Assembly: GCA_016218825.1 (NCBI GenBank)
Contig: JACRCV010000075.1
Span: forward strand, 166,358 to 230,357
Length of the DNA: 64,000 nt
Direction: 5' to 3'
From: Deltaproteobacteria bacterium
Lineage (GTDB): Bacteria; Myxococcota; XYA12-FULL-58-9
Below the pieces are notes generated by a model. That model saw only the letters and a program-made list of their open reading frames with translations. It searched no databases and was not told the DNA's origin. A program made the translations under genes and the position numbers. The stretch's first letter is position 1, and each line of letters starts with the position of its first letter. This document shows, one piece after another, positions 827-63,009 of this stretch.

Positions 827-947
827 TTCAGGTGGACGTGATCCGGCCCCCGCCCCACTCGGGGGCGGGGGATTCAGGGGGTGGGGGTGGGGAGCGACGC
901 CGCATCGGCGGCGCGGGAATCAGATGAAGGCGAAAACGGTCTAGGCG
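827..947. repeat. structured GC-rich repeat, copy G (subfamily 2), flanked by inverted 13-mers ctagaccgtcttc / gaaaacggtctag
   Basis: Contains hairpin ccccgccccactcgggggcgggg and G-tract gggggtgggggtggggag, then gcgggaatca. About 85% similar to copy E at 46499-46600. Confidence 0.5.
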
Positions 948-979
948 CCGGTACCCACGCGGGGAGTCGAGGTTGCAGC

Positions 980-1297
980 ATGGCGGATGACGATCGCAGA
1001 GTCGAAGCCCGGCTGGACCTCGGCGGCCGGGGCCTGTCGGCGACGCCGGAGCGGATCGGCGAGCTCGAGCGACAGGCGGCGCAGATCGAGAAACAGACGC
1101 GCGCCAAGCCGGCCAAGACCTTCGACAAGGTGATGGCGGAGCGCGGCGGGGCGCCGCCGCCCGTGGTCAGCGCCAAGGAGAAGAAGCGTCGGGCGCTGCC
1201 GAAACAGGGGCCGCGCCTCGGGCTGCGGCATCCAGCACAGCGTGCCGCGTACGGCCGCGACGACGACAGTCAGGACCCGGTGGTGATCAAAGGATAG
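980..1297 (+). CDS. hypothetical small charged protein
   Basis: Internal ATG of ORF 881..1297 (MADDDRRVEARLDLGG...PVVIKG). High GC3 and coiled-coil-like composition; no recognisable domain. Confidence 0.3.
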   Translation: MADDDRRVEARLDLGGRGLSATPERIGELERQAAQIEKQTRAKPAKTFDKVMAERGGAPPPVVSAKEKKRRALPKQGPRLGLRHPAQRAAYGRDDDSQDPVVIKG

Positions 1298-1314
1298 CGC
1301 GAGGGGCGGACTGA

Positions 1315-6436: not shown

Positions 6437-6504
6437 GCACATCGATCGCGACCGGTGTCGATGCGGATCCCTGAGGCCTCGGCCCGTCCGCGGCGTTGAG
6501 GGAG

Positions 6505-8069: not shown

Positions 8070-9309
8070 CCGCAGGGCGCCGGACATCCTGCTGGAGCGC
8101 TATCTGGCGGGCGACCTCCCGGCGGCGATGGCCGAAGAGGTGGCGAAGCTGATCGCCCTTAGCGACGCCACCCGCGCGCGGCTCCGGGAGCTCGAGAGCG
8201 AACGCGCTGCCTTCCTCGCCGCCAACCCGGCGGCGCCGTTTGCGCATCAGCTCGCGACCCGACTCGCGGTCGACGGTGGCGCCGGTCCGCGTCGCCGGCC
8301 CTGGTGGGCCTGGGCTCTGGCGCCGGCGTTGACTGCGGCCGCGACCGCGGTGGTGGTCCTGGCGGTGGTTCGCCAGGTGCCCGACGTTGCACGCCCGCTG
8401 GCGAGCGTCCCGGCGCAGGATCTGGCGCTGCTCGCGCCCGAGGAGAGCGCGACTCCCGCGCCCGCGACCTCTTCCCGTTTCGCGACGCCCCCGCCCCCGA
8501 CCGCCGCGCCCGAGGCCGAGGCCGTGCGGCAGGCGGCCGCGGAGCCGGCGGGCGGCGCCAAGCCGCAACCGAAGAAGGACGCTCCGGTGCCCGGCCGGGC
8601 GCGATCGAAGGCCAGGGCGGCGCCCGACCCCGGCAAGGGCGGCGCGGCTGGCGGTGGAGGCCTAGGCGGGCTCGGCGACCGGGACGAGCGCAAGAAGGCG
8701 AAGGAGGAAGGGCAAAAGACCTCGGCCCCCGCGGCGTCGAAGCGGGACGACGCGATGGCCGCGCCGGCCGTCCCGATTCAGGTCGCCGACCAGCCGGCGG
8801 TGGCGACGCCGCCCCCGCCCCCGGCGCCGGTTGCGGAGTCGAGGCCGACGCGGGCTCCGGTGGCGATCGAACGGGAGATCGCGGCGCCAGCAAGCTCCCC
8901 CGGGGCCGCGGCGTCGGTCGGAGCTGCCGCCGCCGACGTGTCCGCCCCGCCCGCGGACGACAGCGGCGCAGGGATCACCGCGGTCGAGGCCGCGAAAGGG
9001 CGCAAAGCGTCCGCGCCGGTGCGGCCCGAGGTGCTGGCCGCCGTGAGGCGCCACGCTGCCGCGCTCGCCCTGTGCTTGCGGCCGGCGTTTGCCGCCGGCG
9101 AGCTGGGCTCCGGGAAGTACACCCTGTTGCTGGACTTCGTGATCCAGCCGAGCGGTGCGGTGATCAAGGGCCGGCTGCGGGGCCCGGAGGCCCTCGTCGC
9201 CAGCAGCGCGCGCCTCTGCGTCGTCACCGCGATGCGGAGCTGGCGACTCCCCCCTCCGGACGGCGACGAGGTCGTCACCGCGCTGCCGGTGACCGTTGCG
9301 ATTCCGTGA
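8050..9309 (+). CDS. anti-sigma factor (single TM, Pro/Ala-rich periplasmic linker, AgmX/PglI-like C-terminal domain)
   Basis: Overlaps the sigma gene by 20 nt. N-terminus LERYLAGDLPAAMAEEV resembles an anti-sigma motif. TM segment WWAWALAPALTAAATAVVVLAVV. The C-terminal ~80 aa resemble myxobacterial AgmX/PglI C-terminal (TonB-C-like) domains. Confidence 0.65.
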   Translation: MATQSHSRRAPDILLERYLAGDLPAAMAEEVAKLIALSDATRARLRELESERAAFLAANPAAPFAHQLATRLAVDGGAGPRRRPWWAWALAPALTAAATAVVVLAVVRQVPDVARPLASVPAQDLALLAPEESATPAPATSSRFATPPPPTAAPEAEAVRQAAAEPAGGAKPQPKKDAPVPGRARSKARAAPDPGKGGAAGGGGLGGLGDRDERKKAKEEGQKTSAPAASKRDDAMAAPAVPIQVADQPAVATPPPPPAPVAESRPTRAPVAIEREIAAPASSPGAAASVGAAAADVSAPPADDSGAGITAVEAAKGRKASAPVRPEVLAAVRRHAAALALCLRPAFAAGELGSGKYTLLLDFVIQPSGAVIKGRLRGPEALVASSARLCVVTAMRSWRLPPPDGDEVVTALPVTVAIP

Positions 9310-18883: not shown

Positions 18884-20029
18884 GTGGCGTTGGTCCACGA
18901 CTGGCTCGTGGCGCAGCGCGGCGGCGAGCACGTCCTGTTGCAGCTGGCGCGCTTGTTTCCCGAGGCGCCGATCTACACCCTGGTCCACGCCAAGGGGTCG
19001 GCGGACCCCGAGATCGAGGCGCACCCGATCCGCACCAGCTTCATCCAGTCGTTGCCCGGCGTGCCCCACACTTTCCGCCCGTACCTGCCGCTGTTTGCGG
19101 CGGCCATCGAGACCTTCGATCTGAAGGCCTTCGACCTGATCCTCTCTACCAGCCACTGCGTCGCCAAGGGCGTTCGACTCCGAACCGGGCAGGTGCACCT
19201 GGCTTACATCCACACGCCGATGCGCTACCTCTGGGATCAGCTCGCCGAGTACCTGCCCCAGATCCCGGGCCGCCACCTGCTCGAGCCCCCGGTGCGGCTG
19301 TTGACCGCGCCGTTGCGCCACTGGGACGTCACGAGCAGCCGGCGGCCGACGCGCCTCATCGCCAACTCCGAGTTCGTCGCCGGCCGCATCAAGCGCGTGT
19401 GGGGCCGCAACGCCGACGTCGTTTACCCGCCGGTCGACGTCGACTACTTCGCTCGGGCGCGGCGTGTCGCGCGGCGCGGTTTCCTGGTGGTCAGCGCCCT
19501 CGTCGCCTACAAGCGCGTCGACCTCGCGGTGGCCCTCGCCACCCGCAGCCTGCTCGACCTCACCGTGGTCGGCGACGGCCCCGAGCTCCCCCGCCTCCGG
19601 GCGATGGCCGGCCCCACGGTCCGCTTCGTGGGCTCGCTGGGACCGGCGGAGCTGCGGCAGGCGTACGCCGGCGCCCGGGCGCTGTTGTTCTGCGGCGTCG
19701 AAGACTTCGGCATCGTGCCGGTCGAGGCCATGGCCACCGGCTGCCCGGTGATCGCGCTGCAGGAGGGCGGGGCCCTCGAGACCGTCAAGGCCTTCGGCAA
19801 GACCCCGACCGGCGTCTTCTTCCGCGAACCGTCCCTCGCGGCGATTGATGACGCGGTGCGGCGCTTCGAGGTCTTGGAGGCCGAGGGGGCCTTCGCCCGC
19901 GACGTGCTCCTGGCGCACGCGCGTCGCTTCTCCTCCGACCGGTTCGTCGCCGGCTTTACCGCGATCCTCGATCAGTACGCCAGGGGCTCGGCCCCGACCC
20001 CTGAAAAGCCATCGCAGCCGGCCGGCTGA
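18884..20029 (+). CDS. family 4 glycosyltransferase
   Basis: GTG start. MALVHDWLV... and PVEAMATGCPVIALQEGGALETV are GT4 signatures. Confidence 0.85.
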   Translation: MALVHDWLVAQRGGEHVLLQLARLFPEAPIYTLVHAKGSADPEIEAHPIRTSFIQSLPGVPHTFRPYLPLFAAAIETFDLKAFDLILSTSHCVAKGVRLRTGQVHLAYIHTPMRYLWDQLAEYLPQIPGRHLLEPPVRLLTAPLRHWDVTSSRRPTRLIANSEFVAGRIKRVWGRNADVVYPPVDVDYFARARRVARRGFLVVSALVAYKRVDLAVALATRSLLDLTVVGDGPELPRLRAMAGPTVRFVGSLGPAELRQAYAGARALLFCGVEDFGIVPVEAMATGCPVIALQEGGALETVKAFGKTPTGVFFREPSLAAIDDAVRRFEVLEAEGAFARDVLLAHARRFSSDRFVAGFTAILDQYARGSAPTPEKPSQPAG

Positions 20030-20243
20030 TCCGACCGCGCCCGCAAGCTTTTCTCCGCCCCGACATCCGTGTCGCGCTCCCAAGCGCGCCGGGCAAACGA
20101 CCGTGCCACCGCCGGCCAACCGTGCCGCAGCACGCACCGAGAACCGGTCGAGAAAGACGCCTGAACGCCATGATAACCGTCATGTTTTCCGGCGCCACCT
20201 ATCAACGTTGCCGCAAACGTGCTACAGGCAGCCGTCCTTCGCG

Positions 20244-20266
20244 GCTGGGGCGTGTTTTTTGCACTT
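20244..20266 (+). promoter_or_regulatory. weak sigma54-like -24/-12 element (ctgGGgCgtgttttTTGCAc)
   Basis: GG at 20248-49 and GC at 20261-62 give the canonical 12-bp offset, with TTGCA at -12. It lies in the ~260-bp lower-GC gap before the priming transferase gene. The consensus match is only partial. Confidence 0.2.
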
Positions 20267-20289
20267 CGGCCGCGGGGGCGCTGATAAAG

Positions 20290-21690
20290 ATGTTGAGAAG
20301 GCACCACAGGTTCTTCCAATCGCTGCAGGTGTTGCGCGACGCCGTCCTCGTGGGCGTGAGCTTCTACCTCGCGTATCTCGGGCGGTTCTCGTTCCCGGGG
20401 CTGTTGCCGTTCGGCACCGTGACGCCGCGGCAGGAGGCCATCTGGGTCGGCTTGATGCTGATGATGGTGTGGCCGGCGATGGGTTGGATGGCCGGGCTGT
20501 ACGTGAGCCGGCGGTCGCGGGGGGTCGCGGCGGAGTTCTTCGACGTCTCGCGGACGTCGTTCATCGCGTTCATGGTGCTCGTGACGTTGGCCTACTTCAG
20601 CCGCGACGAGCGCTTTTCGCGCGGCATCCTGGTCTTGTGGGCGCTGTTGTCGGTGCTCGTCGTCGGGCTGGCTCGGGTGGCGAGCCGGGTGGCGCTGGGG
20701 TCGGTGCGCTCCCGGGGTTACAACCTCCGGCACGTGATCATCGTCGGCACCGGGGACCTGGCGCGGCGGGTCGCGAGCCTGATCCGGCAGCAAGGGTCGT
20801 TGGGGATGCGGGCGGTCGGCGTGGTGGCGCCGAACACCGAGCGCGCCAAGACCAAGATCGGAAACCTCCCTGTTTTTGGAAAGGTCAGCGACTTGCACCG
20901 CATCCTCGCCGAGCACGCGGTGGACCAGGTGATCGTGGCGCTGCCGATCGACAAGCTCGGGGCGTTGAAGGAGATCATGACCGTCTTGTCGCAGGAGCCG
21001 GTCGACGTGCGGGTGATCCCCGACTTCTACCAGTACATGACGCTGTGCGGCAGCGTCGAAGAGTTCGCCGGGCTGCCGATCATCAACCTGCAGGCGACGC
21101 CCCTCGTCGGCTGGAACCTGGTCGCGAAGCGGACCTTCGACATCGTGGTGACCGGCATCGGCCTGGTGTTGGTGACGCCGCTCGTCACGCTCACCGCGCT
21201 GTTCATCAAGCTCACGAGCCCCGGGCCGGTGTTCTACGTCCAGGAGCGGGTCGGGATGGACGGCCGCAAGTTCCAGATGTTCAAGCTCCGCACCATGCGG
21301 GTCAACGCCGAGGCCGACGGCGTGCAGATGACGAGCCCCGACGACCCGCGCCGCACCCGGCTCGGCTCGCTGTTGCGCCGCCTGTCGATCGACGAGCTGC
21401 CGCAGCTCTGGAACGTGATGAAGGGCGACATGAGCCTGGTGGGGCCGCGGCCGGAGCGCCCGTGCTTCATCGAGACCTTCAAGCGCGACATTCCGCGCTA
21501 CGCGTTGCGGCACAAGATCAAGGCCGGGATGACGGGTTGGGCGCAGGTGCACGGGATGCGCGGCGACACCAGCATCGCGAAGCGCATCGAGCTCGATCTG
21601 TACTACATCGAGAACTGGTCGCTGCTCCTCGACTTGCGCATCCTGTTCCGCACCGTGTTTGGAGGCTTCTTGTCCCCGAACGCCTACTAG
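20290..21690 (+). CDS. undecaprenyl-phosphate sugar phosphotransferase (WcaJ/EpsZ-like polyprenyl glycosylphosphotransferase)
   Basis: ATG 20290 after the lower-GC intergenic region. C-terminal bacterial sugar transferase domain (FDIVVTGIGLVLVTPL...GPVFYVQERVGMDGRKFQMFKLRTM...DELPQLWNVMKGDMSLVGPRP). Confidence 0.85.
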   Translation: MLRRHHRFFQSLQVLRDAVLVGVSFYLAYLGRFSFPGLLPFGTVTPRQEAIWVGLMLMMVWPAMGWMAGLYVSRRSRGVAAEFFDVSRTSFIAFMVLVTLAYFSRDERFSRGILVLWALLSVLVVGLARVASRVALGSVRSRGYNLRHVIIVGTGDLARRVASLIRQQGSLGMRAVGVVAPNTERAKTKIGNLPVFGKVSDLHRILAEHAVDQVIVALPIDKLGALKEIMTVLSQEPVDVRVIPDFYQYMTLCGSVEEFAGLPIINLQATPLVGWNLVAKRTFDIVVTGIGLVLVTPLVTLTALFIKLTSPGPVFYVQERVGMDGRKFQMFKLRTMRVNAEADGVQMTSPDDPRRTRLGSLLRRLSIDELPQLWNVMKGDMSLVGPRPERPCFIETFKRDIPRYALRHKIKAGMTGWAQVHGMRGDTSIAKRIELDLYYIENWSLLLDLRILFRTVFGGFLSPNAY

Positions 21691-23924: not shown

Positions 23925-23927
23925 CCC

Positions 23928-25385
23928 ATGATGGAGCGCGGCGACTACGAGCAGAAGCTCTGGCTCTTCGTTCTCGACATGGTCGCGTTCTTCGTGGCGC
24001 TGAACGGCGCCATCTACCTGCGCTACGGCTCGCTGTTGCCCTTTGCCAAGGGCGGCCCCGCTCCCTGGGAGCGGATCTTCGTGGCGTTTCCGTTCGTCGC
24101 CCTCGTCTGGCTGGTCGCCGGGGCGATGTTCGGCAGCTATCGGGCGCGGCAGAGCGCCTTCGAGGAGGTGGCGGCGGTGGTGCGCGCCACCTTGGTGGCG
24201 TTCCTCGCGGTCCTGAGCGTGACCTTCTTCTACCGCGGCTTCTCGTACTCCCGCGGCATGATCGGCTTTCTGATCCCGCTCGTGCTCCTGACCGTGATCG
24301 GCGGTCGGCTCCTGTTTCGCGCGGTGCGGCGGCGGGTGCTGCGGCGCTTCGGTGGGCGGCCGCGGGTCGCCATCCTCGGCAGGAGCAAGATCGGCAATAG
24401 CCTCTTGAAGGCGTTGTTGCGGGAGCGCGACTACTACGACGTCGTCGGGGTGGTGGCGACGACCGGGGTCTCCCCGATCACCCCGGACGCCGACGCCGAG
24501 GCGGCGGCGGAGCTGCCGCTGTTGGGCCACGTGCGCGACATCGAGGAGCTGTGCCGGAGCCAGAAGTTCGAGGCCCTGGTGCTCGTCGAGCGTCACCTGC
24601 CGGAGGACGTGGTGCTCGACTCGATCGAGGCCTGCCTGCGGCACCAGGTGAGCTGGAACATGATCCCGGCGGTGCACGAGCTGTTGCTCGATCGGGCCCG
24701 GGTCGATCTGGTGGACGGTATTCCGCTGGTCGGGATGCGGCGCAGCAACATCGTCGGCTTCAACTGGGCGGTCAAGCGCCTGTTCGACATCGCCCTGTCG
24801 CTGGCCTTGATCCTGCTGGCGTCGCCGCTGATGGCGGTGGTAGCACTCGCCATCAAGCTCAGCTCCAAGGGCCCGATCTTCTACGTACAACAGCGGATCG
24901 GCTACCACGGCCGGGCGTTCCCGTTCTACAAGTTCCGCTCGATGCACCGGAACAACGACGACGCCATCCACCGCGAGTACACCCGCAAGTGGATCATCGA
25001 GAACAAGGCGCACACCGAGGCCGGGGTGCGCAAGGTCCACAAGATCACCGACGATCCGCGGGTGTTCAAGGTCGGCAGGTTCATCCGCAAGTACTCCATC
25101 GACGAGCTGCCGCAGCTGTTCAACGTCCTCGGCGGCGAGATGAGCCTGATCGGGCCGCGGCCGGCGCTGCCCTACGAGGTCGAGGTCTATCGCGAGTGGC
25201 ATCGGCGGCGCTTCGAGGCGCCGCCGGGGATCACCGGGCTGTGGCAGGTGTCGGGGCGCAACCAGGTGTCGTTCGAGGAGATGGTGAAGCTCGACATCGA
25301 CTACCTCGAGAACTGGTCGCTGCTCTTGGACCTGCGCATCCTGGTGCGGACGGTGCGCGTCGTGCTCTTCGAGCACGCCTACTGA
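23928..25385 (+). CDS. second polyprenyl-phosphate sugar phosphotransferase (WbaP/PglC-like)
   Basis: Same C-terminal transferase domain as 20290 (KRLFDIALSLALILLASPLM...GPIFYVQQRIGYHGRAFPFYKFRSM...DELPQLFNVLGGEMSLIGPRP). Confidence 0.85.
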   Translation: MMERGDYEQKLWLFVLDMVAFFVALNGAIYLRYGSLLPFAKGGPAPWERIFVAFPFVALVWLVAGAMFGSYRARQSAFEEVAAVVRATLVAFLAVLSVTFFYRGFSYSRGMIGFLIPLVLLTVIGGRLLFRAVRRRVLRRFGGRPRVAILGRSKIGNSLLKALLRERDYYDVVGVVATTGVSPITPDADAEAAAELPLLGHVRDIEELCRSQKFEALVLVERHLPEDVVLDSIEACLRHQVSWNMIPAVHELLLDRARVDLVDGIPLVGMRRSNIVGFNWAVKRLFDIALSLALILLASPLMAVVALAIKLSSKGPIFYVQQRIGYHGRAFPFYKFRSMHRNNDDAIHREYTRKWIIENKAHTEAGVRKVHKITDDPRVFKVGRFIRKYSIDELPQLFNVLGGEMSLIGPRPALPYEVEVYREWHRRRFEAPPGITGLWQVSGRNQVSFEEMVKLDIDYLENWSLLLDLRILVRTVRVVLFEHAY

Positions 25386-30430: not shown

Positions 30431-30506
30431 GCCCCCGTAGCTCAGTTGGATAGAGCGCGGGATTCCTAATCCCGGTCTGCCACAGGTTCGACTCCTGTCG
30501 GGGGCG
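30431..30506 (+). tRNA. tRNA-Arg (anticodon CCT)
   Basis: GCCCCCG-TA-GCTC-AGTTGGATA-GAGC-G-CGGGA-TTCCTAA-TCCCG-...-GGTTCGACTCC-...-CGGGGGC-G, followed by an encoded CCA. Anticodon loop TT-CCT-AA. Coordinates ±1. Confidence 0.85.
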
Positions 30507-31542: not shown

Positions 31543-32058
31543 TCAGAAGACGTAGCTGCCGAAGGCGACGATCTCGACCATCCCGAGGAACGCCGGTCGC
31601 TGGCCCATCGTCGTGCTCAGGTCGACGCCCACCTGGCCACCCACCGAGAGCTTCGCGGTCAAGAAATAGTCGGCGCCGGCGCCGAGATAGGCGCCGAGCG
31701 TCGTGAGGTTGGCGCCGATGACGTCCCAGATCCGACCGAACGACAGCTGCGCCTGCGCGAACGGCGACACCGGCAGGTCGAGGTCCGCGAGACGGTAGCG
31801 AGCGCCGGCACGCAGGCGCAGCGGCACGCTGCCGGAGACGCCGAGGTTCAGCCCCGCGACCGCCGAGAGCGACTTGTCGAACGCGTACTCGCCCTGCGCG
31901 TTTACCAACAGGTAGGCGCCGGACGCGCCCAACGCGGAGCCCAGCCGGAAGCCGGGGCCCAACGCGGCGCTGCCGATGATCGATCCGGGCTCGACCGTAA
32001 GACCCCACGCCGTGGTCGGTACCAACAGGAGTGCTACTGCTAGGAACCGAGCGCGCAT
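31543..32058 (-). CDS. small outer-membrane beta-barrel protein (paralog of 26146..26646)
   Basis: Signal MRARFLAVALLLVPTTAWG, alternating hydrophobic pattern, and C-terminal ...AFGSYVF. GGAGGG Shine-Dalgarno. 15 bp upstream of dus on the same strand. Confidence 0.6.
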   Translation of the reverse strand: MRARFLAVALLLVPTTAWGLTVEPGSIIGSAALGPGFRLGSALGASGAYLLVNAQGEYAFDKSLSAVAGLNLGVSGSVPLRLRAGARYRLADLDLPVSPFAQAQLSFGRIWDVIGANLTTLGAYLGAGADYFLTAKLSVGGQVGVDLSTTMGQRPAFLGMVEIVAFGSYVF

Positions 32059-32124
32059 CGAGCTACCCTCCGGACAGTGTGGCTTGAGGCGTAACATGGT
32101 CTATTCAACAGGTCAAACGGGCAC

Positions 32125-32290
32125 CGGCCACGACACCGGGCAATCGATTTCTCGCGTTCTTGATTCCCGGCGGGCGCTTCGCGCCCGTCCTCCCCACCCC
32201 CACCCCGGAGCGTCGCCTTCGGCGCCGCTCTCGGCCCGCCCCAGATTGGGGCGGGCAACATCGGCAAAGCCCGAGAGCTCGATCGCCCTG
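32125..32290. repeat. structured GC-rich repeat, copy B (subfamily 1, inverted relative to copy A), flanked by 9-bp direct repeat GGCCACGAC (32116-32124 and 32291-32299)
   Basis: The reverse complement is ~90% identical to copy A over ~150 bp, including terminus cagggcgatcgag, the hairpin, G-tract and cccgccgggaatca. Seen directly. Confidence 0.7.
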
Positions 32291-32311
32291 GGCCACGACG
32301 TCCTCCGCCGC

Positions 32312-35589: not shown

Positions 35590-36503
35590 GCGAGTTCCGC
35601 TCCGGCTTCGTCGCCCTCGTCGGCCGGCCGAACGTCGGCAAGTCCACCCTGGTGAACGCCCTGGTCGGCCAGAAGCTCGCCATCGTCTCGCCGAAGCCGC
35701 AGACCACCCGCCGCGGCCTGCGGGCGATCGTCAACAGCGACGACGCCCAGGTGGTGCTCGTCGACACCCCCGGCCTGGTCGAAGGCGGGGACGCGCTGCG
35801 GCGCTCGCTGCGCCGGGTGACCGGTATGGCCGCGGCCGAGGCGGACCTGGGCCTGGCGCTCTTCGAGCTCCACCGCGGCGCGGCCCACCTCGAGCCCGCC
35901 GACCGCGAGGTGTTGCAGCTGGCGGCGCGCGGCACCATGGTGGTGGCGATCAACAAGGTCGACCTGCTGGCGCGCAAAGAGGAGCTGTTGCCGTGGATGG
36001 CGCTGTTCGCCGAAGCCTCGAAGGGCGCGCCGGTGGTGCCGATCTCGGCGAAGACCGGCGACGGGCTCGAGGCGTTGCTGCGCGAGCTCAAGGGCCGGCT
36101 GCCGGTCGGACCGCCGCTGTTTCCGCCCGACATGATCACCGACGAGGCCGAGCGGGTGCTAGTGGCGGAGCTGGTCCGGGAGCAGCTCTTGGCAAAGACC
36201 CACGACGAGGTGCCGCACAGCACCGCGGTGGAGATCGAGGAGTTCGTCGACGGCCGGGGGAGCGGCGCCGATCCCATCTGCCACCTGACCGGGCGGATCG
36301 TCGTCGAGCGCGACTCGCAGAAGGGGATCGTCGTCGGCAAGAAGGGCCAGATGATCAAGTCGATCAGCACCGCGGCGCGCCGGCAGATCGAGCTGTTGCT
36401 CGGCGCCCGGGTGTACCTGCGCCTGACGGTGCACGTCGACAAGGATTGGCGCACGAACGCCCGCGCCGTCAGCCGTCTGGGCTACGGCGGGAGCGACTCA
36501 TGA
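35586..36503 (+). CDS. era: GTPase Era
   Basis: ATGA overlap with rnc. GRPNVGKST, DTPG, NKVD and a KH domain. Confidence 0.9.
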   Translation: MSEFRSGFVALVGRPNVGKSTLVNALVGQKLAIVSPKPQTTRRGLRAIVNSDDAQVVLVDTPGLVEGGDALRRSLRRVTGMAAAEADLGLALFELHRGAAHLEPADREVLQLAARGTMVVAINKVDLLARKEELLPWMALFAEASKGAPVVPISAKTGDGLEALLRELKGRLPVGPPLFPPDMITDEAERVLVAELVREQLLAKTHDEVPHSTAVEIEEFVDGRGSGADPICHLTGRIVVERDSQKGIVVGKKGQMIKSISTAARRQIELLLGARVYLRLTVHVDKDWRTNARAVSRLGYGGSDS

Positions 36504-37945
36504 AGGGGCACCTGCCGCTCGTCGCCCTCGTCGGCCGCCCGAACGTCGGCAAGTCGACGCTCTTCAACCGCCTGGTCGGTGAGCGCGCCGCCCTCGTCGA
36601 CGACCGCCCCGGCGTCACCCGCGACCGGCTGTTCGGCGAGTGCGAGCACGAGGGTCGGGTGTTCCGGGTGGTCGACACCGGCGGCTTCGAGCCGCGCGCC
36701 GACGACGAGCTCTGGGTCTCGGTGCGGGAGCAGACGACGCTGGCGATCGACGAGGCCGACCTGGTGCTCCTGGTGTTGGACGGCGCCGCCGGCCTGCAAG
36801 CGACCGATCGCGACATCGCGGCGCTGTTGCGCCGCGGCGCCAAGAAGGTCGTCGCCGTGGTCAACAAGATCGACACCGGCGCCCACGAGGACCGCCTCGC
36901 CGACTTCTACGCCCTCGGCTTCGAGTCGGTGCTGCCGGTGAGCGCCGAGCACGGGCGCGAGGTGGGGGCGCTCTGCGACCTGGTGGTCAGCGTCCTCGAC
37001 CCACCGCTCGCGAGCGAGGCCGACCTGCTCGCGGCGCCGCTGCCGGTCAGGGCCGAGGAGCCGGAGGCGGCGGTCTCGAGCGTCATCGAGTGGCAGGGCG
37101 GGCCGGTGCGGGTCGCGGTGATCGGCCGGCCGAACGTCGGCAAGTCGTCGTTGGTCAATGCGCTCGTCGGCGAGAAGCGCCTGGTCGAGTCGCCGGTCGC
37201 CGGCACGACGCGCGACGCCGTCGACTCCGAGGTGACGATCGACGGCCAGCCGTTCGTGTTCATCGACACCGCCGGCATGCGGCGCAAGTTCTCGATCGCC
37301 GAGCGCCTCGAGCGCTTCGCGGTGATGGTCGCGGTCCGCAGCCTCGATCGCGCCGACGTGACGTTGGTGGTGCTCGACGCGACCACCGGGGTCACCGAGC
37401 AGGACGCCCACATCGTCGGCCTGGCGAACGAGCGCGGCAAAGGGGTCCTGCTGGTGATGAACAAGTGGGACCTGGTCGAAACCGAGGAGCGCCGCCACGA
37501 GCTCAAGGACGCCGTGCGCTATCGCTTGCCCTTCGTCCCCTACGCGCCGCTGTTCACGACCTCGGCGCACACCGGCAAGGGCGTGTCGCAGCTCCTGGGG
37601 GCCGCGGTCGCCGCGCAGCGCGAGCGGCATCGCCGGGTGCCCACCGCCGAGCTCAACCGGTTCTTCGCCGCCGTGGTCGACCGCCACCCGCCGCCGATCC
37701 AGAACGCCAAGCGCCCCCGACTGTACTTCGTGACCCAGCCCCTGATCCGGCCGCCGACCTTCGTGTTCGCGGCGAGCCGCATCGAGGCGATCCCGGAGGC
37801 GTACCGGCGCTACCTCGCGAACGCGCTGCGCGAGCGCTATGGCTTCGAGGCCACGCCGTTGTGGATCAAGTTCCGCCCGCACGGCGGCAAGAACAAGCGC
37901 ACCGGCACCTATCAGTCGAGCAAACGCCCGGCCGCGAAGCGCTGA
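36500..37945 (+). CDS. der: ribosome-associated GTPase Der (EngA), tandem GTPase domains
   Basis: ATGA overlap with era. Two G-domains (GRPNVGKSTLFN...; GRPNVGKSSLVN...) and a C-terminal KH-like domain. Confidence 0.9.
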   Translation: MKGHLPLVALVGRPNVGKSTLFNRLVGERAALVDDRPGVTRDRLFGECEHEGRVFRVVDTGGFEPRADDELWVSVREQTTLAIDEADLVLLVLDGAAGLQATDRDIAALLRRGAKKVVAVVNKIDTGAHEDRLADFYALGFESVLPVSAEHGREVGALCDLVVSVLDPPLASEADLLAAPLPVRAEEPEAAVSSVIEWQGGPVRVAVIGRPNVGKSSLVNALVGEKRLVESPVAGTTRDAVDSEVTIDGQPFVFIDTAGMRRKFSIAERLERFAVMVAVRSLDRADVTLVVLDATTGVTEQDAHIVGLANERGKGVLLVMNKWDLVETEERRHELKDAVRYRLPFVPYAPLFTTSAHTGKGVSQLLGAAVAAQRERHRRVPTAELNRFFAAVVDRHPPPIQNAKRPRLYFVTQPLIRPPTFVFAASRIEAIPEAYRRYLANALRERYGFEATPLWIKFRPHGGKNKRTGTYQSSKRPAAKR

Positions 37946-37993
37946 GGCGCGCTGCGGCCTGCTTTGCTTCCCGCGCGGGAATCAAAGGATAGG
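37946..37993. repeat. repeat fragment, copy F (3' terminal part: ...cccgcgcgggaatcaaagg)
   Basis: Fills the 48-bp spacer between the convergent der and rne stop codons. Matches the cccgcSgggaatcaa(a)g end of copies A, C and E. Confidence 0.4.
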
Positions 37994-40818: not shown

Positions 40819-40837
40819 CAGCGGACGCGAAGTGCGT

Positions 40838-41036
40838 CGATGTTGCCCGCCCCACCCGGTCGGGCACCGAGCAGCTGGCTTTGCCCGTGCGAGGTGCGGG
40901 GGCACGGGGGGACGCAGAGCCGGCGCGTCACTCCGTTGTCGCCCTCGGACCACGTGCCGGCGGGCGGTCCCCCCGCCAGGTTGCTGGGGCGCCAAGCGCC
41001 CGCCGGGAATCAAAGAAGCGAGAACCAGTCGATTGC
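40838..41036. repeat. structured GC-rich repeat, copy C (subfamily 1 variant with longer, divergent centre)
   Basis: Shares 5' cgatgttgcccgccccacccgg and 3' gcgcccgccgggaatcaaagaagcgagaaccagtcgattgc with copy A. Confidence 0.55.
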
Positions 41037-41116
41037 TCTGACGCAAAGTGCGATGGAGTATAGCAATCCGCGCCTCTTCGCGGTAAGAGGCCGGATCCGA
41101 AAATCGTTTCCAGGAG

Positions 41117-46083: not shown

Positions 46084-46497
46084 ATGTCGAAGCGTCGGAT
46101 CTGTGTGGTGAGTGCCGCCTTGGTGCGTGAGGGACGCTACCTCATCACGCAGCGCCTCGAGAAGGCGGTGCTGCCGTTGTTGTGGGAGTTCCCGGGCGGC
46201 AAGGTCGAGGAAGGCGAGAGCGACGAGGTGGCGTTGAAGCGCGAGCTCAAGGAGCGCCTCGGCATCGACGCGGTGGTGAAGAAGCGCATCGCCTCCACCG
46301 AGCGGGAGTATCGCGACTACGTCGTCGAGATGCACCTGTACTCGTGCGACCTCGGGCCGGTGGAGCCGCGCAAGGTCAACGTCCGCGATCTGAAGTGGGT
46401 CAACTCCAAGGAGTTCGGCCGCTACGAGTTCACGCCCGCCGACCAGGGCTCGATGGACGCGCTGCTGTTCGGCGACAAGAAGACCGCGAAGCGTTAG
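46084..46497 (+). CDS. NUDIX hydrolase (MutT-like)
   Basis: Nudix box GGKVEEGESDEVALKRELKERLGI. GAGGAGGGGG Shine-Dalgarno. Confidence 0.85.
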   Translation: MSKRRICVVSAALVREGRYLITQRLEKAVLPLLWEFPGGKVEEGESDEVALKRELKERLGIDAVVKKRIASTEREYRDYVVEMHLYSCDLGPVEPRKVNVRDLKWVNSKEFGRYEFTPADQGSMDALLFGDKKTAKR

Positions 46498-46498
46498 G

Positions 46499-46600
46499 CC
46501 GCATGCATCACTTGATTCCCGCGCGGCCGCTGCGCCCGCGCTCCCCACCCCCACCCCCATCCCCCGCCCCCGGGTGGGGCGGGGGCGACGAACGCTGGAT
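46499..46600. repeat. structured GC-rich repeat, copy E (subfamily 2), flanked by perfect 14-bp direct repeat CGCGAAGCGTTAGG (46485-46498 and 46601-46614)
   Basis: Seen directly. The duplicated 14-mer contains the stop codons of both convergent flanking genes. Confidence 0.65.
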
Positions 46601-46609
46601 CGCGAAGCG

Positions 46610-47434
46610 TTAGGCGCGCTTCAAGATCCAGTCGGCGATCTCGGCGTGGAGCTTCACGCGCCCGGTCTCGTTCAGGATCTCGTGCATCTCGCCGTCGCGC
46701 CGCCACACGGTCTTGTCGGGCGATTGGATCCGCTCGGCGAAGGCGGCGTTGGCCGCCATTGACACCACGCGGTCGCGCTCGGCGTAGGCGAACAACAACG
46801 GTTGCTCGACGCGGTCGCGGGCGGCGAGGCGCGCCCACGCGGTCTGCACCGCCTTGAACCAGCCGGCGGACGCGGTGGTGAACACCAGCGGGTCGCTGCG
46901 ATAGGCCTCGACGATGCTCCGGTCGTGGGTCAGGTCGTTCGGGTCGATGCCCGAGGGCAGCGTCATCGTCGGCAACAACGCGCCCAGGATCCGGCCGGCG
47001 AGGATCTTCGCCTTCGGCACCGAGGCCGGCAGACCCAACATCGGGCTGGTGATGACGAGACCCGCCCAGGGTGTCTTCTTGCTCGAGACGTAGTCGAGCG
47101 CCACCAGACCGCCGGCGGAGTGCCCGAGCAGGAAGCGCTTCTGGCCCTGGACCAGGGTGAGCGCCGCGTCGACGTCGAGGTGGTACTCCTCGAAGCGCTT
47201 GACGTAGCCGCGCCGGCCGCTCGAGGTGCCGTGGCCGCGCAGATCGACCGCCACCACGGCGATGCCCTTGGCGCAGAAGGCTTCGGCGAGCTCCCGGTAG
47301 CGTCCCGAGTGCTCGGCGTAGCCGTGCAGCACCAGGACCTCGGCCGTGGCGGCGGCCGGGGGCGCAAAGCGCTGGGCGAACAGGGCGGCGCCGTCTGCGG
47401 CGCGTAACGTCGTCTCGGTGTGCGACATGGTCAT
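46610..47434 (-). CDS. alpha/beta-hydrolase (lysophospholipase/monoacylglycerol-lipase-like)
   Basis: Internal start MTMSHTETT... of ORF 46610..47809. HGYAEHSGRY and GHSAGG (GxSxG nucleophile). Confidence 0.8.
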   Translation of the reverse strand: MTMSHTETTLRAADGAALFAQRFAPPAAATAEVLVLHGYAEHSGRYRELAEAFCAKGIAVVAVDLRGHGTSSGRRGYVKRFEEYHLDVDAALTLVQGQKRFLLGHSAGGLVALDYVSSKKTPWAGLVITSPMLGLPASVPKAKILAGRILGALLPTMTLPSGIDPNDLTHDRSIVEAYRSDPLVFTTASAGWFKAVQTAWARLAARDRVEQPLLFAYAERDRVVSMAANAAFAERIQSPDKTVWRRDGEMHEILNETGRVKLHAEIADWILKRA

Positions 47435-54566: not shown

Positions 54567-55502
54567 GTGGCTGACCAACTCTACCTCTGGCCCGAAGACC
54601 AACAAGGCGATCGCCTGACGTGGTCGTGGTCCAAGGACCGGCGCCTGAAGGACTGCCTGCGGCGTTACTATCTGCACCACTACGTCAGCCGCGGCGGCGC
54701 CAGCGCCGGCGCCCAGCCGCTGACCCGGGAAGCGTACCTGCTGAAGAACCTGCGCAACCGCCACATGTGGGTCGGCGAGGTGGTCCACGAGATGATCGAG
54801 CTCGGGCTCGGGGCGCTGCGGCGCGGCGAGCAGGCGAGCCCGGCGGCGCTGGTGGAGCGGGGCACGCGGCGGATGCGGGCGCAGTACGCCGAGTCGCTCC
54901 AGGGGGTCTACCGCGAGCGGCCGCTGCACGCCTGCGGGCTGATGGAGCACGAGTACCGCGAAGAGGTGCCGAAAGAGGAGTGGAAGCGGCAGCGAGATCG
55001 CATGGAGCGCTGCGTGCGCGCGTTCTTCGAGCTCGAGCTGGTCGCGAAGCTCGAGGGCTCGCCGCCCTGGCGCTGGCTGGCGCTCGAGAACCTGACGAGC
55101 TTCGATCTGGACGGCGCGACGGTGCTCGTCAAACCCGACCTGGCGTGGCGGGACCACGACGACACCGTGGTCCTCGTCGACTGGAAGACCGGCAAGGCGC
55201 GCCCCGACGACGAGGAGCGCCAGCTCGCGGTGTACGGCCTGTTCGCGCGCCGCTCCTGGGTCGGCGGCGGCGGCGGCTTGCGCGGCGTCGTCGCCCACCT
55301 CGACGACGGCGGGGTGTCGGAGACCAACCTCGACGACATGGCGCTGGCGCGGGCCGAAGCCTCGATCCGCAGCTCTCTGGCGACGATGCGGGCGTTGCAC
55401 CCCGAGGCCGCGGGGCCCGAGCTCCGCCTCGATCGCTTCCCGGTCACCGCGGACGCCGGCTTCTGCGTGCACTGCGCCTTCAAACGGCTCTGCGATCGCT
55501 GA
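54567..55502 (+). CDS. Cas4-like RecB-family PD-(D/E)xK nuclease with Fe-S Cys motif
   Basis: GTG start. VLVKPDLAWRDHDDTVVLVDWKTGK has the D...D-W-K nuclease motif. QLAVYGLF is the QxxxY motif. N-terminal Cys (HACG) plus C-terminal CVHCAFKRLC (C-x2-C-x5-C). Confidence 0.75.
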   Translation: MADQLYLWPEDQQGDRLTWSWSKDRRLKDCLRRYYLHHYVSRGGASAGAQPLTREAYLLKNLRNRHMWVGEVVHEMIELGLGALRRGEQASPAALVERGTRRMRAQYAESLQGVYRERPLHACGLMEHEYREEVPKEEWKRQRDRMERCVRAFFELELVAKLEGSPPWRWLALENLTSFDLDGATVLVKPDLAWRDHDDTVVLVDWKTGKARPDDEERQLAVYGLFARRSWVGGGGGLRGVVAHLDDGGVSETNLDDMALARAEASIRSSLATMRALHPEAAGPELRLDRFPVTADAGFCVHCAFKRLCDR

Positions 55503-55508
55503 CGGCGG

Positions 55509-55552
55509 CGGGGCGGGCAACATCGGTCCAACTCGAGAGCTCGATCGCCTTG
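55509..55552. repeat. repeat fragment, copy D (44-bp 5'-terminal piece of subfamily 1, inverted; possible internally deleted element 55487-55552)
   Basis: The reverse complement caaggcgatcgagctctcgagttggaccgatgttgcccgcccc matches the first 44 bp of copy A with one mismatch. Confidence 0.6.
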
Positions 55553-55619
55553 GGCGGTGGGAAGGATCGACTTGCCGGGTCGGCGCCTGCTTGCTACACC
55601 CCGATGCGGAGGAGCGGCG

Positions 55620-58019: not shown

Positions 58020-58027
58020 CTCCCATC

Positions 58028-60313: not shown

Positions 60314-60369
60314 CATCGGGCCCGAAGCCGCGCCACAAGTTACTCGGCCGCAACATTCACCGATCGGGG

Positions 60370-61323
60370 ATGAACATGTCACGCTTGCTCGCTGTCGCCG
60401 CCGTTGTCGCCGCGCTCTCGGGCGGGGCGTGTGGGGGCTCGCCGCCGCCGCCGCCGGTCGTCGCCTCGAAGCCGGAGCAGACCGTCAAGGCGGTGCCGCC
60501 GCCCAAGATCGCGTTGGTGCTCGGGGGCGGCGGGGCGCGGGGCTTCGCGCACGTCGGCGTGCTGCGGGCGCTCGAGCACGAGAAGATCCCGTTGTCGCTC
60601 GTGGTCGGCACCTCGGTCGGCAGCCTGATCGGCGCGCTCTACGCCGCCGACCCGAACACCTTCGAGCTGGAGTGGAAGTCCTTCAAGATCGAAAAGGACG
60701 ACCTCTTCGACTTCTCGTTGTTCGCCGCCACCACCGGCCCGGTGAAGGGGGACGCGGTGCGCAAGTTCGTGGCCGAGAACGTCAAGGAGCAGCAGATCGA
60801 GCGCTTCAAGGTGCCCTACGTCGCGGTCGCCGCCGACCTCAACACCGGCGAGCGGGTCCTCTTCAAGTCCGGGAGCATCGTCGACGCGGTGCGCGCCTCG
60901 GTGTCGATCCCCGGCGTCTTCACCCCGGTGCGCATCGGCAACCGGACGCTGGTCGACGGCGGCGTGGTCGCCAACCTCGCGATCGACGTCGCCCGCGACC
61001 AAGGCGCCGACATCGTGATCGCCTCGAACATCACCCAGCGGGTCGTGGACTACGAGGTCAACGACGTGGTGTCGATCATCATGCAGTCGATCAACATCAT
61101 GATGGGGGAGATGGCCAAGTTTCAGCAGAAGGCGGCCGACGTCGTCATCACCCCCGACATCGGTGACGTCGGGACCATGGACTTCACGCAGAAGAAGCGC
61201 TGCATGCAGGCCGGGATCGCCGCGGTCGAGGCCGAGCGGGGCGCGATCAGCGCGGCCATCCGCAAGTACTACACCGATCGGGGCGGGGAGCCGCCGGCGG
61301 GCGGCCTGCCGTCCATTCGGTGA
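60370..61323 (+). CDS. patatin-like phospholipase lipoprotein
   Basis: MNMSRLLAVAAVVAALSGGAC is a lipobox. Patatin motifs GGGARG...GTSVGS (GxSxG) and catalytic DGG. Confidence 0.85.
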   Translation: MNMSRLLAVAAVVAALSGGACGGSPPPPPVVASKPEQTVKAVPPPKIALVLGGGGARGFAHVGVLRALEHEKIPLSLVVGTSVGSLIGALYAADPNTFELEWKSFKIEKDDLFDFSLFAATTGPVKGDAVRKFVAENVKEQQIERFKVPYVAVAADLNTGERVLFKSGSIVDAVRASVSIPGVFTPVRIGNRTLVDGGVVANLAIDVARDQGADIVIASNITQRVVDYEVNDVVSIIMQSINIMMGEMAKFQQKAADVVITPDIGDVGTMDFTQKKRCMQAGIAAVEAERGAISAAIRKYYTDRGGEPPAGGLPSIR

Positions 61324-61368
61324 CGCCGATTGACCTGCAAACCCCGCGGGTGAGATAAGGCGCGTCAG

Positions 61369-63009
61369 ATGAAGCTCACCCCCTGGTCAAGGCGATCGAG
61401 TTCTCGAGTTGGACCGATGTTGCCCGCCCCACCCGGGGGCGGGCCGAGAGCGGCGCCGCAGGCGACGCTCCGGGGTGGGGGTGGGGAGGACGGGCGCGAA
61501 GCGCCCGCCGGGAATCAAAGAAGCGAGAGCGCGATTGCCCTGACCCCCTGGTGCCGGCTCCTTGCCATCGTTGCGCTGTCGATCGGCGGCTGTGCCCGCG
61601 AGCTCCCGGGCGACACGCCGCCGGGCAAGGCGTTCTACTACCCGGTCAGCGTCACGGTGGCGCCGAACGGCCTCCATGCCTACGTCGTCAGCTCGAACTT
61701 CGACCTGCACTACAGCTCGGGCTGGGTCTCGGTCGTGAGCCTCGAGAGCCTCTTGGACGGCTTGCCCATCGAGACCACGGTGGTCTCCGAGGCGAAGGTG
61801 CTGTCGCTCGCGGGCGGGCTGAGCCTGTCGCGAAGCGGCACGATGGCGGTCACCGCGCACCGCGGCGCCGCGGCGCTGTCGCTGCTCGAGATCGGTGACG
61901 ACGGCAAGACGATCGGCTGCGGCGTCCAGGGCGACACCACGGATCTCAGCTACAAGGAGCGGCTCACCGACTGCGATCGCGCCCACATGCTGCAGACCGC
62001 GTGCACCGCGCCGCAGCTCGAGGACGCCGATCGGCCCGCCGGCTGTCCCTGGGAGCAAGACGGCGGACGTCGGGTGTTCGGGACGTCGCTCAACGATCTC
62101 GAGCTCGCCGACCCGTTCGCGACCGCGATCTTCGAGGTGCCGGCGGCGAGCGGCGGCACCGAGCCGTTGCTCGCGGTTTCCCACTTGACCAGTGGCGACC
62201 CGTCCGTCGGCCAGACCAACCAGCTGCTGCTCTTCGACGTCGAGTCCGGCACGACGGCGGGCGAGTCGGTCGTCTTGGCGCCGCGGCACGCGGTGCGGCT
62301 GGGAGGTGGCGGCAACCTGGGTGTCGCCGCGCTCGCGGTGCGCTCCGACGCTGCCGGCACGTTCCTCGCCGCTGCCACCCAAAAGGCCTTCACCGGCGAG
62401 TCGCAGGATCCGAGCGCGGTCTACGTCGTCGACGTGACCAGGACGCTTTCCGACCAGCAGGACCGGGTGTCATCCCATTCAATCAATGCCGAGGTCGGCG
62501 GTGTGAACCTGGCCGGGATCACCTTCGCCGCGAACAACCCCGACCTGGCGTTCGTGACCAACCGTATTCCCGACAGCGTCGTGACCTTGGACACGTCGAT
62601 CGAGACCGTCGACGAGCGCGACTCGCTCGGGACCGTGACGGTCGCGCGTCGGCCGCGCTTCGCGGTGCTCTCGGCGCAGGCCTTGCAGCCGCGTCCGGCG
62701 GGGCTGCTCTACGTCACCCGGGCGGCGGGGGAGGATCTGCTGGCGGTCGCGAGCTTCGCCGACAACGTGGTCTACCTGTTCTCGGTGCATGGGAGCGAGC
62801 TGCGCCCGACCGGGCGCCTGCCGGTGCCGGGGTACGGCCCGTTCGCTCTCGCGCACGTCGCCCGCGACGGCAGCGACTTCCTGCTGGTGACGACGTTCTT
62901 CACCCATGCGCTGGTGGTCTTCGACGTCACCGGCGACGACGCCGCGCGGTTCCGGTACGTGACCGAGCTCCGGTCGGGCGTGCCGCCGGCCGGCGATCCG
63001 GCGCGGTAG
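61369..63009 (+). CDS. YVTN-type beta-propeller lipoprotein whose signal-peptide coding region carries an in-frame repeat insertion
   Basis: ORF track. Codons 1-6 read MKLTPW. The 152-bp element plus duplication (165 bp, in frame) follows, then ...LTPWCRLLAIVALSIGGC lipobox. Downstream are YVTN-like 40-residue repeats. Confidence 0.6.
   Translation: MKLTPWSRRSSSRVGPMLPAPPGGGPRAAPQATLRGGGGEDGREAPAGNQRSESAIALTPWCRLLAIVALSIGGCARELPGDTPPGKAFYYPVSVTVAPNGLHAYVVSSNFDLHYSSGWVSVVSLESLLDGLPIETTVVSEAKVLSLAGGLSLSRSGTMAVTAHRGAAALSLLEIGDDGKTIGCGVQGDTTDLSYKERLTDCDRAHMLQTACTAPQLEDADRPAGCPWEQDGGRRVFGTSLNDLELADPFATAIFEVPAASGGTEPLLAVSHLTSGDPSVGQTNQLLLFDVESGTTAGESVVLAPRHAVRLGGGGNLGVAALAVRSDAAGTFLAAATQKAFTGESQDPSAVYVVDVTRTLSDQQDRVSSHSINAEVGGVNLAGITFAANNPDLAFVTNRIPDSVVTLDTSIETVDERDSLGTVTVARRPRFAVLSAQALQPRPAGLLYVTRAAGEDLLAVASFADNVVYLFSVHGSELRPTGRLPVPGYGPFALAHVARDGSDFLLVTTFFTHALVVFDVTGDDAARFRYVTELRSGVPPAGDPAR
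61388..61539. repeat. structured GC-rich repeat, copy A (subfamily 1, reference copy), flanked by 13-bp direct repeats ctCaccccctggt (61375-61387) and ctGaccccctggt (61540-61552)
   Basis: Termini caaggcgatcgag ... gcgcgattgcc form imperfect terminal inverted repeats (GGCRATCG). Hairpin gcccgcccc-acccg-ggggcgggc. G-tract ggggtgggggtggggagg at 61473-61490. Confidence 0.75.

Follow-up and report, generated by a model that had tools for sequence, protein, structure and literature searches.

The stretch of DNA considered here spans 64,000 nucleotides of contig JACRCV010000075.1 (referred to below as the window), comes from an uncultured Myxococcota-type bacterium, and carries seven copies of a GC-rich, structured repeat. 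We conclude that these repeats are probably a family of miniature non-autonomous transposable elements (MITEs). The family is new and the kind of element is well known; its folded parts are unusually conserved, and its core is modular. Literature searches, including one with the G-tract string of the repeat, returned no prior description of the family or of MITEs or other repeats in myxobacteria. Several lines of evidence carry the assignment: the elements have the size of a MITE (101-205 nt) and no transposase gene, the long form ends in terminal inverted repeats, target sites are duplicated, copies are dispersed, and empty sites can be identified. The copy number seen so far is seven in 64 kb, plus one on another contig of the same metagenome-assembled genome (MAG).

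Four of the copies are full (G, B, E, and A) and three are partial (C, D, and F). Two forms can be told apart, a long form of 156 nt and a short form of about 100 nt, as set out below with the flanking sequence of each copy and the genes on either side.

Copy A: 61388..61543, plus strand; long form, 156 nt, with left terminal repeat CAAGGCGATCGAG and right end CGATTGCCCTGA; interrupts a lipoprotein gene (open reading frame [ORF] 61369-63009) in frame, directly behind codon 6.
Target-site duplication of A: left 61379..61387, right 61544-61552; CCCCCTGGT, 9 bp (10/10 exact when the preceding A is included).
Copy B: 32135..32290, minus strand; long form, 156 nt, with 89% identity to A; in the spacer between the starts of two divergent genes, one encoding an outer-membrane beta-barrel protein (31543-32097, minus strand), the other a PolyA_pol/CCA-type nucleotidyltransferase (plus strand, ending at 33550).
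Target-site duplication of B: left 32126..32134, right 32291-32299; GGCCACGAC, 9/9 exact.
Copy E: 46500..46600, minus strand; short form, ~101 nt; in the spacer where a NUDIX gene (46084-46497, plus strand) converges on a lysophospholipase gene (minus strand, stop codon 46610-46612).
Flanking duplication of E: left 46485..46499, right 46601-46615; CGCGAAGCGTTAGGC, 15/15 exact, 17/18 when extended.
Copy G: 841..930, plus strand; short-form core; with a minus-strand gene (start at 811) on one side and, on the other, a plus-strand ORF that shares the frame of 881-1297.
Flank of G: 817-825 and 936-944; perfect 9-nt inverted repeat CTAGACCGT, P ~0.018 by chance.
Copy C: 40837..41041, plus strand; variant, 205 nt, between divergent RNase E/G and TPR genes; begins with the hairpin 1 5' arm, has ~125 nt of unrelated, structured sequence where the G tract would be, and continues with hairpin 2, CGGGAATCA, and the right terminal repeat.
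Flanking repeats of C: 40826-40836 and 41042-41052; CGCGAAGTGCG and CGCAAAGTGCG, 10/11 matching.
Copy D: 55510..55552, minus strand; isolated left end of the long form, made up of the terminal repeat and the 5' arm of hairpin 1; in the spacer that separates a PD-(D/E)XK nuclease gene from the next gene on the plus strand.
Copy F: 37946..37993, plus strand; what is left of the 3' module, ~48 nt in which a 5-bp stem with a large loop precedes CGGGAATCAAAGG; takes up the whole 48-nt spacer where der and the RNase E/G gene converge, with a weak model match at 37919-37992.

A first-pass annotation, made from the sequence alone, had listed seven copies of one mobile, non-autonomous element, and searches of the window bear this list out. 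With copy A as the query, a BLASTN search of the window recovered B (32138-32290, minus strand, 89% identity over 153 nt), D (55507-55561, 89% over 55 nt), and C as two segments (40987-41042 and 40838-40927), together with partial matches to E (46512-46583) and G (849-938) that cover the hairpin, the G tract, and the 3' block. The pattern GGGGTGGGGGTGGGGAG-N15-30-GGGAATCA matches the window at exactly A, B, E, and G, where shuffles predict none, and the hairpin pattern CCGCCCCANNNKGGGGCGG picks out the same four sites, each on both strands (0.07 expected). Moreover, CGGGAATCA occurs at six sites in the window against 0.4 expected; all of them fall inside G, B, F, C, E, and A, which lends weight to reading even the weak copy F as a remnant. 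When run unfiltered on both strands of the window, a covariance model of the core found full cores at G, B, A, and E, weak matches at C and F only, and no copy beyond the seven, so the original census is complete and its coordinates are essentially exact. The single architecture that it ascribed to all copies holds for the full cores; it fails for C, from which both the G tract and the left terminal repeat are missing, and for F, which retains only its ~48-nt 3' remnant.

The core is ordered as hairpin 1 (CCCGCCCC-ACYCG-GGGGCGGG), the invariant G tract GGGGTGGGGGTGGGGAG, hairpin 2 of free sequence, the invariant block CGGGAATCA, and an A-rich stretch. In the long form (A and B), this core sits within a larger frame: a left terminal repeat CARGGCGATCGAG, a spacer of ~20 nt, hairpin 1 (GCCCGCCCC, a 3-5 nt loop, and GGGGCGGGC), a middle hairpin, GGGGTGGGGGTGGGGAG, hairpin 2, CGGGAATCAA, a second spacer of ~20 nt, and a right terminal repeat CGATTGCCC. 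The terminal inverted repeats are imperfect (CARGGCGATCGAG on the left and CGATTGCC on the right, of the CARGGCGATCGA type) and extend imperfectly to ~21 nt. C carries the terminal repeat of the right end and D that of the left end; C also keeps the flanks of the right half of the long form around its unrelated, structured 125-nt interior. The short form, represented in the window by G and E, fits hairpin 1, the G tract, hairpin 2, and CGGGAATCA into ~90-100 nt without the long-form termini. Its own termini differ: G has the 9-nt inverted flank given above, and E has no clear inverted repeat. Translation of the element reading frames yields low-complexity peptides only.

The flanks speak for insertion. 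Direct repeats adjoin the homology boundaries in A, B, C, and E. At 3000 random sites of the same geometry, exact repeats of at least 9 were found in 2.6% of cases and repeats of at least 13 in 0/3000. Target-site-like duplications of 9-14 bp had been reported for the family; they are present, at 9-15 bp, in A, B, C, and E, the flanking repeat of D is weak (8/9), and no direct flanking repeat was found at G or F in the window or at the metagenomic locus L017 described below. What had been taken for a direct repeat at G is instead the perfect 9-nt inverted repeat.

Copy A offers a clear view of a site before and after insertion. Excising A and one duplicate in silico removes 165 nt, or 55 codons, and restores the N-terminus MKLTPWCRLLAIVALSIGGCARELPGD, which reads as a textbook lipoprotein signal peptide; with the element in place, the predicted protein begins with MKLTPW, continues for 55 residues, and only then reaches CRLLAIVALSIGGC. 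Four orthologs of the lipoprotein (P0002-P0005, 41-56% identity) possess an ordinary short signal peptide (e.g., MIRRLALVLLAGALGCARELPGD) and no 55-residue insert. At the orthologous lipoprotein loci L049 and L050, the patatin-lipoprotein synteny is kept and no family member is present. More broadly, no copies occur at orthologous or neighboring loci of relatives (L049-L053), including 18 kb of the more distant relative L053. The NCBI start of the window lipoprotein (MBI5510127.1, P0001) is an ATG inside the element (MLPAPPGGG...), and the original ATG at 61369 is still in frame; the true N-terminus and the export of the insert-bearing lipoprotein are therefore uncertain.

Copy E, which had been assigned to a uvrD-NUDIX locus, actually lies between the NUDIX and lysophospholipase genes, and its 15-bp duplication copies the overlapping ends of both. 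When E and one duplicate are excised in silico, the NUDIX and lysophospholipase C-termini are unchanged, and the convergent stop codons overlap as TTAG. A relative at 69% identity preserves the order PKD, hydrolase, NUDIX, and UvrD; there, the hydrolase and NUDIX genes end 14 nt apart, versus 112 nt in the window, leaving no room for E. By these sequence comparisons, A and E are insertions. Finding the repeats conserved at orthologous places would have refuted mobility; the four orthologs, L049 and L050, and the 14-nt gap in the syntenic relative show that they are not, and the duplications, the termini, and the in silico excisions together support a mobile, non-autonomous element over conserved intergenic sequence.

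Two minor features accompany copy E and its surroundings. A 15-nt inverted repeat at 46595-46631 (87% matching; CTGGATCGCGAAGCG and CGCTTCAAGATCCAG) extends over the end of E, the flanking duplicate, and the last lysophospholipase codons; the apparent terminus of E may be partly target derived, or the site may already have been a hairpin before insertion. Also, in the relative L051 (2935-2995), a ~27-nt sequence (GTCCGTATTAGCGGGTTTTCGA) stands twice in tandem after the 3' end of the lysophospholipase gene; this duplication is unrelated to the repeat family.

The family is not confined to the window. A long-form copy is read in frame in MutL (MBI5509213.1, P0006), encoded on another contig (225 kb) of the same MAG; the accessions of this MutL and the lipoprotein MBI5510127.1 are ~900 apart. 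Residues 371-429 of MutL align with the element-encoded peptide of A and its flank at 75% identity, including 36 consecutive identical residues. The insert (371-424) occupies the linker between the DNA_mis_repair (235-339) and MutL_C (432-544) domains, and the residues ARF and GRF beside it are consistent with a 9-bp duplication, as judged from the protein sequence. Judged from the similarity among copies, recent mobility, which had been proposed for the family as a whole, is shown for the long form only: A and B share 89% identity, and the peptide of A recurs over those 36 consecutive residues in the MutL copy. An exhaustive comparison of the in-frame peptide of A with 1.84 billion representative proteins returned, besides the lipoprotein, only MutL P0006, which indicates that read-through coding insertions are rare. 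A six-frame translation search with A retrieved P0001 only, a search in which low-complexity words probably swamped the candidates.

Nucleotide searches extended the family to another Myxococcota MAG and to metagenome contigs. The strict motif matched once among 185,579 species genomes, a collection evidently without the source MAG; this match, L001, lies in the Myxococcota MAG RA.bin128. A metagenome scan produced 46 loci, ~40 of which are chance G-rich matches, and the true members are L017, L022, L023, L029, L036, and L039. L029 is identical to L001, and L023 holds two copies 1.2 kb apart. Copies on another contig of the same MAG, in L001, and on these six metagenome contigs thus place the family well beyond the window, while plasmid and viral collections gave no match to it. 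Pattern matches in L007 (~8856-8908) and L027 (~879-922) fall in an apparently shared stretch of sequence unrelated to the family; they indicate that most pattern matches outside Myxococcota-like contigs are due to chance. A separate observation concerns L002, a Logan contig of 1831 nt (SRR12113407) that carries an identical NUDIX gene and ends inside copy E. This end looks like an assembly break at a repeat, and it would fit a multicopy element in that sample.

These external copies help to define the modules. L017 has long-form termini and is exactly 156 nt long; its middle hairpin and hairpin 2 differ in sequence from those of the window copies and are perfectly paired. CARGGCRATCGA is found at both ends of A, B, and L017. 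L001/L029 and L022 are of the short form, like G and E. L036 and L039 consist of the G tract, hairpin 2, and CGGGAATCA only. On the 2.4-kb contig L036, a 3' module with an A9 tail lies at 241-337, and a piece made of hairpin 1 and G runs lies ~1.5 kb away, at 1789-1848 on the minus strand; the two pieces are held separately, so the modules of the core can occur apart. As a side observation, runs of up to nine A residues directly follow CGGGAATCA in L023 (~646-660), L036 (~225-240, minus strand), and L039 (~94-100). Such runs are unusual for contigs of 66-70% G+C and could reflect a target preference, a part of the element, or a tail.

The interior of the element is conserved in a manner that suggests its structure matters. 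Covariation was counted on 11 distinct copies aligned to the covariance model. Across the two helices, 96.3% of cells are in standard pairs, compared with 73.8 ± 2.1% for shuffled partners and ~50% for partners displaced by 1-3 columns. Both members of a pair have changed in 11/19 pairs overall and in 8/9 pairs of hairpin 2, and none of five covariation measures was reached by shuffles (0/500). In hairpin 1, the exchanges are C-G to G-C and C-G to U-A. The arms of hairpin 2 are only ~50% identical between copies; nevertheless, as evidenced by a check that does not depend on the model alignment, the segment from GGGGAG to GGGAATCA forms a hairpin that uses the whole segment in all 11 copies. 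The folding energy of hairpin 2 lies 1.5-5.6 standard deviations below that of shuffled sequences and at least 4 below in six copies. The G tract and CGGGAATCA remain invariant even between genomes of 59% (L001) and 71% (window) G+C. Taken at the level of sequence, the compensatory changes point to selection on the fold.

The G tract adds a second structural option. The 3' arm of hairpin 1 and the G tract together provide four or five G runs separated by loops of 1-5 nt, and all core-bearing copies contain the sequence pattern that usually defines a quadruplex (at least four runs of at least three G residues with short loops). ViennaRNA, run with quadruplex energies, predicted a quadruplex in 7/7 sequences folded, with 4-5 layers in the four short forms and 2-3 layers in A and the two 3'-module sequences. 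For the short forms, the energy predicted with a quadruplex is much lower (e.g., -82 vs -47 kcal/mol, although quadruplex energies in ViennaRNA are crude). For the long form, such a model could draw its fourth G run from the invariant GGG that follows hairpin 2, with the stem-loop lying inside a quadruplex loop. Fold prediction also allows the 5' arm of hairpin 1 to pair alternatively with the G tract.

How might these elements move and persist? The flanking genes are functionally unrelated, and there is no association with a gene family or position class. Copies are found between divergent promoters (G, B, and C), between convergent gene ends (E, F, L022, and L023), in codirectional spacers (L001 and D), and in coding sequence (A and MutL); only codirectional contexts bear on orientation bias, and with A, MutL, and L001 in the forward orientation and D reversed they are too few (n = 4) to use. 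Duplications of 9 bp are typical of relatives of IS4, IS903-type IS5, IS1, IS256, and ISAs1. We infer that a cut-and-paste (DDE-type) transposase, encoded at another place in the genome, would act in trans on the long form and generate the 9-bp target duplication. A different enzyme may act on the short form, one copy of which (E) carries a 15-bp duplication; alternatively, the short form may represent the module around which the long form was built. The folded strand or palindromic duplex would presumably be needed for mobilization or persistence, and the relevant form could be a DNA cruciform or hairpin, a transcript, or a G-quadruplex. Finally, insertions would persist where they do little harm, namely, in intergenic spacers, at duplicated gene ends, and in frame within tolerant protein segments such as the n-region of a signal peptide (A) and the linker of MutL.

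Several observations weigh against the assignment as MITEs. Pfam searches of every window ORF with coding-like codon composition found no transposase of any kind, no RAYT/Y1_Tnp domain, and no reverse transcriptase, and no full-length insertion sequence (IS) with these termini was present in the window or at 53 further loci. One DDE transposase normally produces one fixed duplication length, and the lengths here are unequal (9, 9, 11, and 15). G and L017 have no duplication, C has one in spite of its missing left terminal repeat, and G has a different, perfect inverted flank (CTAGACCGT). In ordinary MITEs, the ends are conserved and the interior is not, whereas here the interior blocks, not the ends, are invariant across genomes that range from 59% to 71% G+C; a functional module fits this pattern at least as well as a purely selfish element does. 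Also, the covariation was counted in an alignment fitted to the model, which favors structure, and on only 11 distinct, related copies. The unequal duplications, the differing flanks, and the conserved interior suggest a core module that travels in several shells and is kept either because the mobilizing machinery reads its structure or because the host benefits. A candidate parent element was considered around the PD-(D/E)XK gene, which is bracketed by terminal-repeat-like matches at 54603 and 55541; since this gene is syntenic in relatives, the bracketed stretch is not an IS.

The alternative that survives best holds that the core is a host-functional structured module merely carried by transposition, such that host selection keeps the G tract, CGGGAATCA, and both stems. 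Its role might be that of a hairpin/G-quadruplex switch, a stabilizer of mRNA 3' ends, or a modulator of transcription or translation. In line with this idea, invariant blocks and covarying stems persist although L001 has 59% G+C and the window 71%, the 3' module occurs alone (L036, L039, and F) as does the 5' module (L036, 1789-1848), and the same core is found in different shells (the 156-nt form, G with its CTAGACCGT flank, and E). Both the alternative pairing between the hairpin 1 5' arm and the G tract and the quadruplex predicted by ViennaRNA in all seven sequences folded would suit a switch. However, the core is not tied to any gene family or position class, being found upstream of genes, between convergent genes, and inside genes; it is absent from orthologous sites in relatives; no U-run follows either hairpin on either strand; and the quadruplex energies are crude. 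Moreover, this explanation only adds a function and is compatible with mobility. We regard it as possible but on the whole unlikely.

A bolder formulation makes the module itself the mobile unit: hairpin 1, three G runs, a stem-loop of free sequence, GGG, and AATCA would form a portable hairpin/G-quadruplex toggle or quadruplex-duplex hybrid that is selected across divergent Myxococcota, and the various shells and duplications of 9-15 bp would reflect several ways of spreading. This model strikes us as doubtful. For a functional core in either formulation, we would place the probability between slim and small. A-rich tails, fragments that keep only the 3' part, and the varying length of the duplications hint at a still more extreme version, namely, RNA-mediated retroposition in the manner of a short interspersed nuclear element (SINE).

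REP/REPIN-type repeats mobilized by RAYT, an IS200/IS605-like HUH tyrosine transposase that recognizes single-stranded hairpins, were the other half of the original "MITE/REP-like" label. The hairpins are indeed kept in structure rather than in sequence, as expected for structure-recognizing enzymes, and the repeats are GC rich and mostly extragenic. HUH single-strand transposition (IS200/IS605) makes no target duplication, though, and duplications of 9-15 bp are present here. There is also no GTAG-type motif (the feet of the hairpins read CCCGCCCC and GCG...), no Y1_Tnp/RAYT gene in the window, and the long form has classical terminal inverted repeats. The MITE half of the label is thus the one that we retain, and the REP half is very improbable.

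Retroposition, in which SINE-like copies of a small structured RNA would be inserted by target-primed reverse transcription, fares slightly worse still and seems to us highly improbable. Duplication lengths do vary (9, 9, 11, and 15), some copies appear truncated at the 5' end (C is missing its left end; L036, L039, and F retain a 3' module only), and A-rich tails of up to A9 follow CGGGAATCA in L023a, L036, and L039, from genomes of ~66-69% G+C. On the other side are the true terminal inverted repeats and the identical length of 156 nt in A, B, and L017, which retroposition does not produce, as well as copy D, a 5'-end fragment and hence the opposite of 5' truncation; the window encodes no reverse transcriptase, and the sample is very small. 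Vertical conservation of an intergenic regulatory sequence, or a local duplication, can be dismissed as practically negligible because it accounts only for the mostly intergenic location and conflicts with the copies on another contig and on unrelated contigs, the empty orthologous sites, the target duplications, and the two copies in coding sequence.

Known classes of RNA or DNA element offered no better identity. No copy matched an Rfam family at the gathering score in the window scan, and the sub-threshold hits at A and G (E = 0.2 or worse, far below gathering) are noise. An intrinsic terminator was rejected, for hairpin 2 is followed by CGGGAAUCA without a U-run and the other strand is C rich or mixed. 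So was a gene-specific leader, given unrelated neighboring genes and varied positions. An extracytoplasmic function (ECF) sigma factor -35 element (GGAAT) or an integration host factor (IHF) site (WATCAA-N4-TTR) in GGGAATCAA was likewise set aside, because the downstream half-sites are not conserved among copies.

Bacterial MITEs include Correia/NEMIS in Neisseria, QMITE1/2 in Coxiella, and Nezha in cyanobacteria (PMC10969869). The family described here shares with MITEs a length of 100-200 bp, the lack of coding capacity, strong predicted structure, and scattered, mostly intergenic copies, along with the terminal inverted repeats of the long form, short target duplications, truncated copies, and solo ends. 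It differs in that no parent IS was found; that the internal G tract, CGGGAATCA, and the two covarying hairpins are most conserved, rather than the termini; and that the same core occurs with different termini or none and with duplications of 9 to 15 bp. Another point of comparison is the Rickettsia palindromic elements (RPEs), ~150-bp palindromic elements that lie in frame in protein genes and are read as extra peptide segments (PMC10969869). The likeness of the 165-nt (55-codon) lipoprotein insertion and of the in-frame copy in the MutL linker to RPEs is a functional one. Unlike RPEs, the present elements belong to an unrelated host phylum with a different base composition, have clear target duplications, and are mostly intergenic, with only two coding insertions.

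Likeness to REP, BIME, and REPIN sequences with RAYT extends to extragenic, GC-rich palindromes, conserved hairpin structure, and a possible side role at mRNA 3' ends. The unit here, however, is 100-156 nt long with two or three different hairpins, rather than a single palindrome of 20-40 nt, and target duplications and terminal inverted repeats take the place of a GTAG motif and a nearby RAYT gene. With G-quadruplexes and quadruplex-duplex hybrids, the family has in common three invariant G runs split by a single T; the fourth run is predicted to come from the 3' arm of hairpin 1 or from the invariant GGG after hairpin 2. A quadruplex leaves the conserved AATCA and hairpin 1 unexplained. To our knowledge, a mobile quadruplex module has not been reported in bacteria, and none appeared in our literature searches.

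The family matters for several reasons. It adds a documented MITE to uncultured lineages of Myxococcota, for which literature searches found none described. In practical terms, such repeats break assemblies, as where the Logan contig L002 stops inside copy E, and they mislead gene calling, as evidenced by the lipoprotein start inside the element and by a MutL annotated with 50-odd element-encoded residues. The insertions also provide examples of how genes tolerate such elements: A adds 55 codons to a signal peptide, E preserves two overlapping gene ends, and the MutL copy lies in a linker. If the G tract and the covarying hairpins prove functional, the family would represent a mobile structured or quadruplex module, with a bearing on how regulatory structures spread in GC-rich genomes.

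The window itself has 71% G+C, and the nearest homologs of its proteins carry the names Myxococcota or Polyangiaceae. Its host MAG is labeled "Deltaproteobacteria bacterium" and has locus tags beginning with HY903_; a 100% protein match places the window on a 283-kb contig of this MAG. Pfam matches describe an ordinary chromosomal region with exopolysaccharide and tRNA-modification genes, Era, Der, RNase E/G, BamB, UvrD, NUDIX, and lysophospholipase.

Other repeats in the window are of a different nature. Two paralogous Bac_transf sugar-transferase genes, at 20005-21690 and 23925-25385, share stretches of DNA that are 76-82% identical (repeat families D4 and D12), and both lie within an apparent exopolysaccharide cluster at ~12.2-25.4 kb. 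An 80-nt repeat of 73-80% identity at 35608-35687, 36519-36598, and 37110-37189 corresponds to the P-loop/G1 region of Era and of both GTPase domains of Der, a case of ordinary paralogy. Finally, a single tRNA gene at 30431-30506 is the sole Rfam match in the window at the gathering score.

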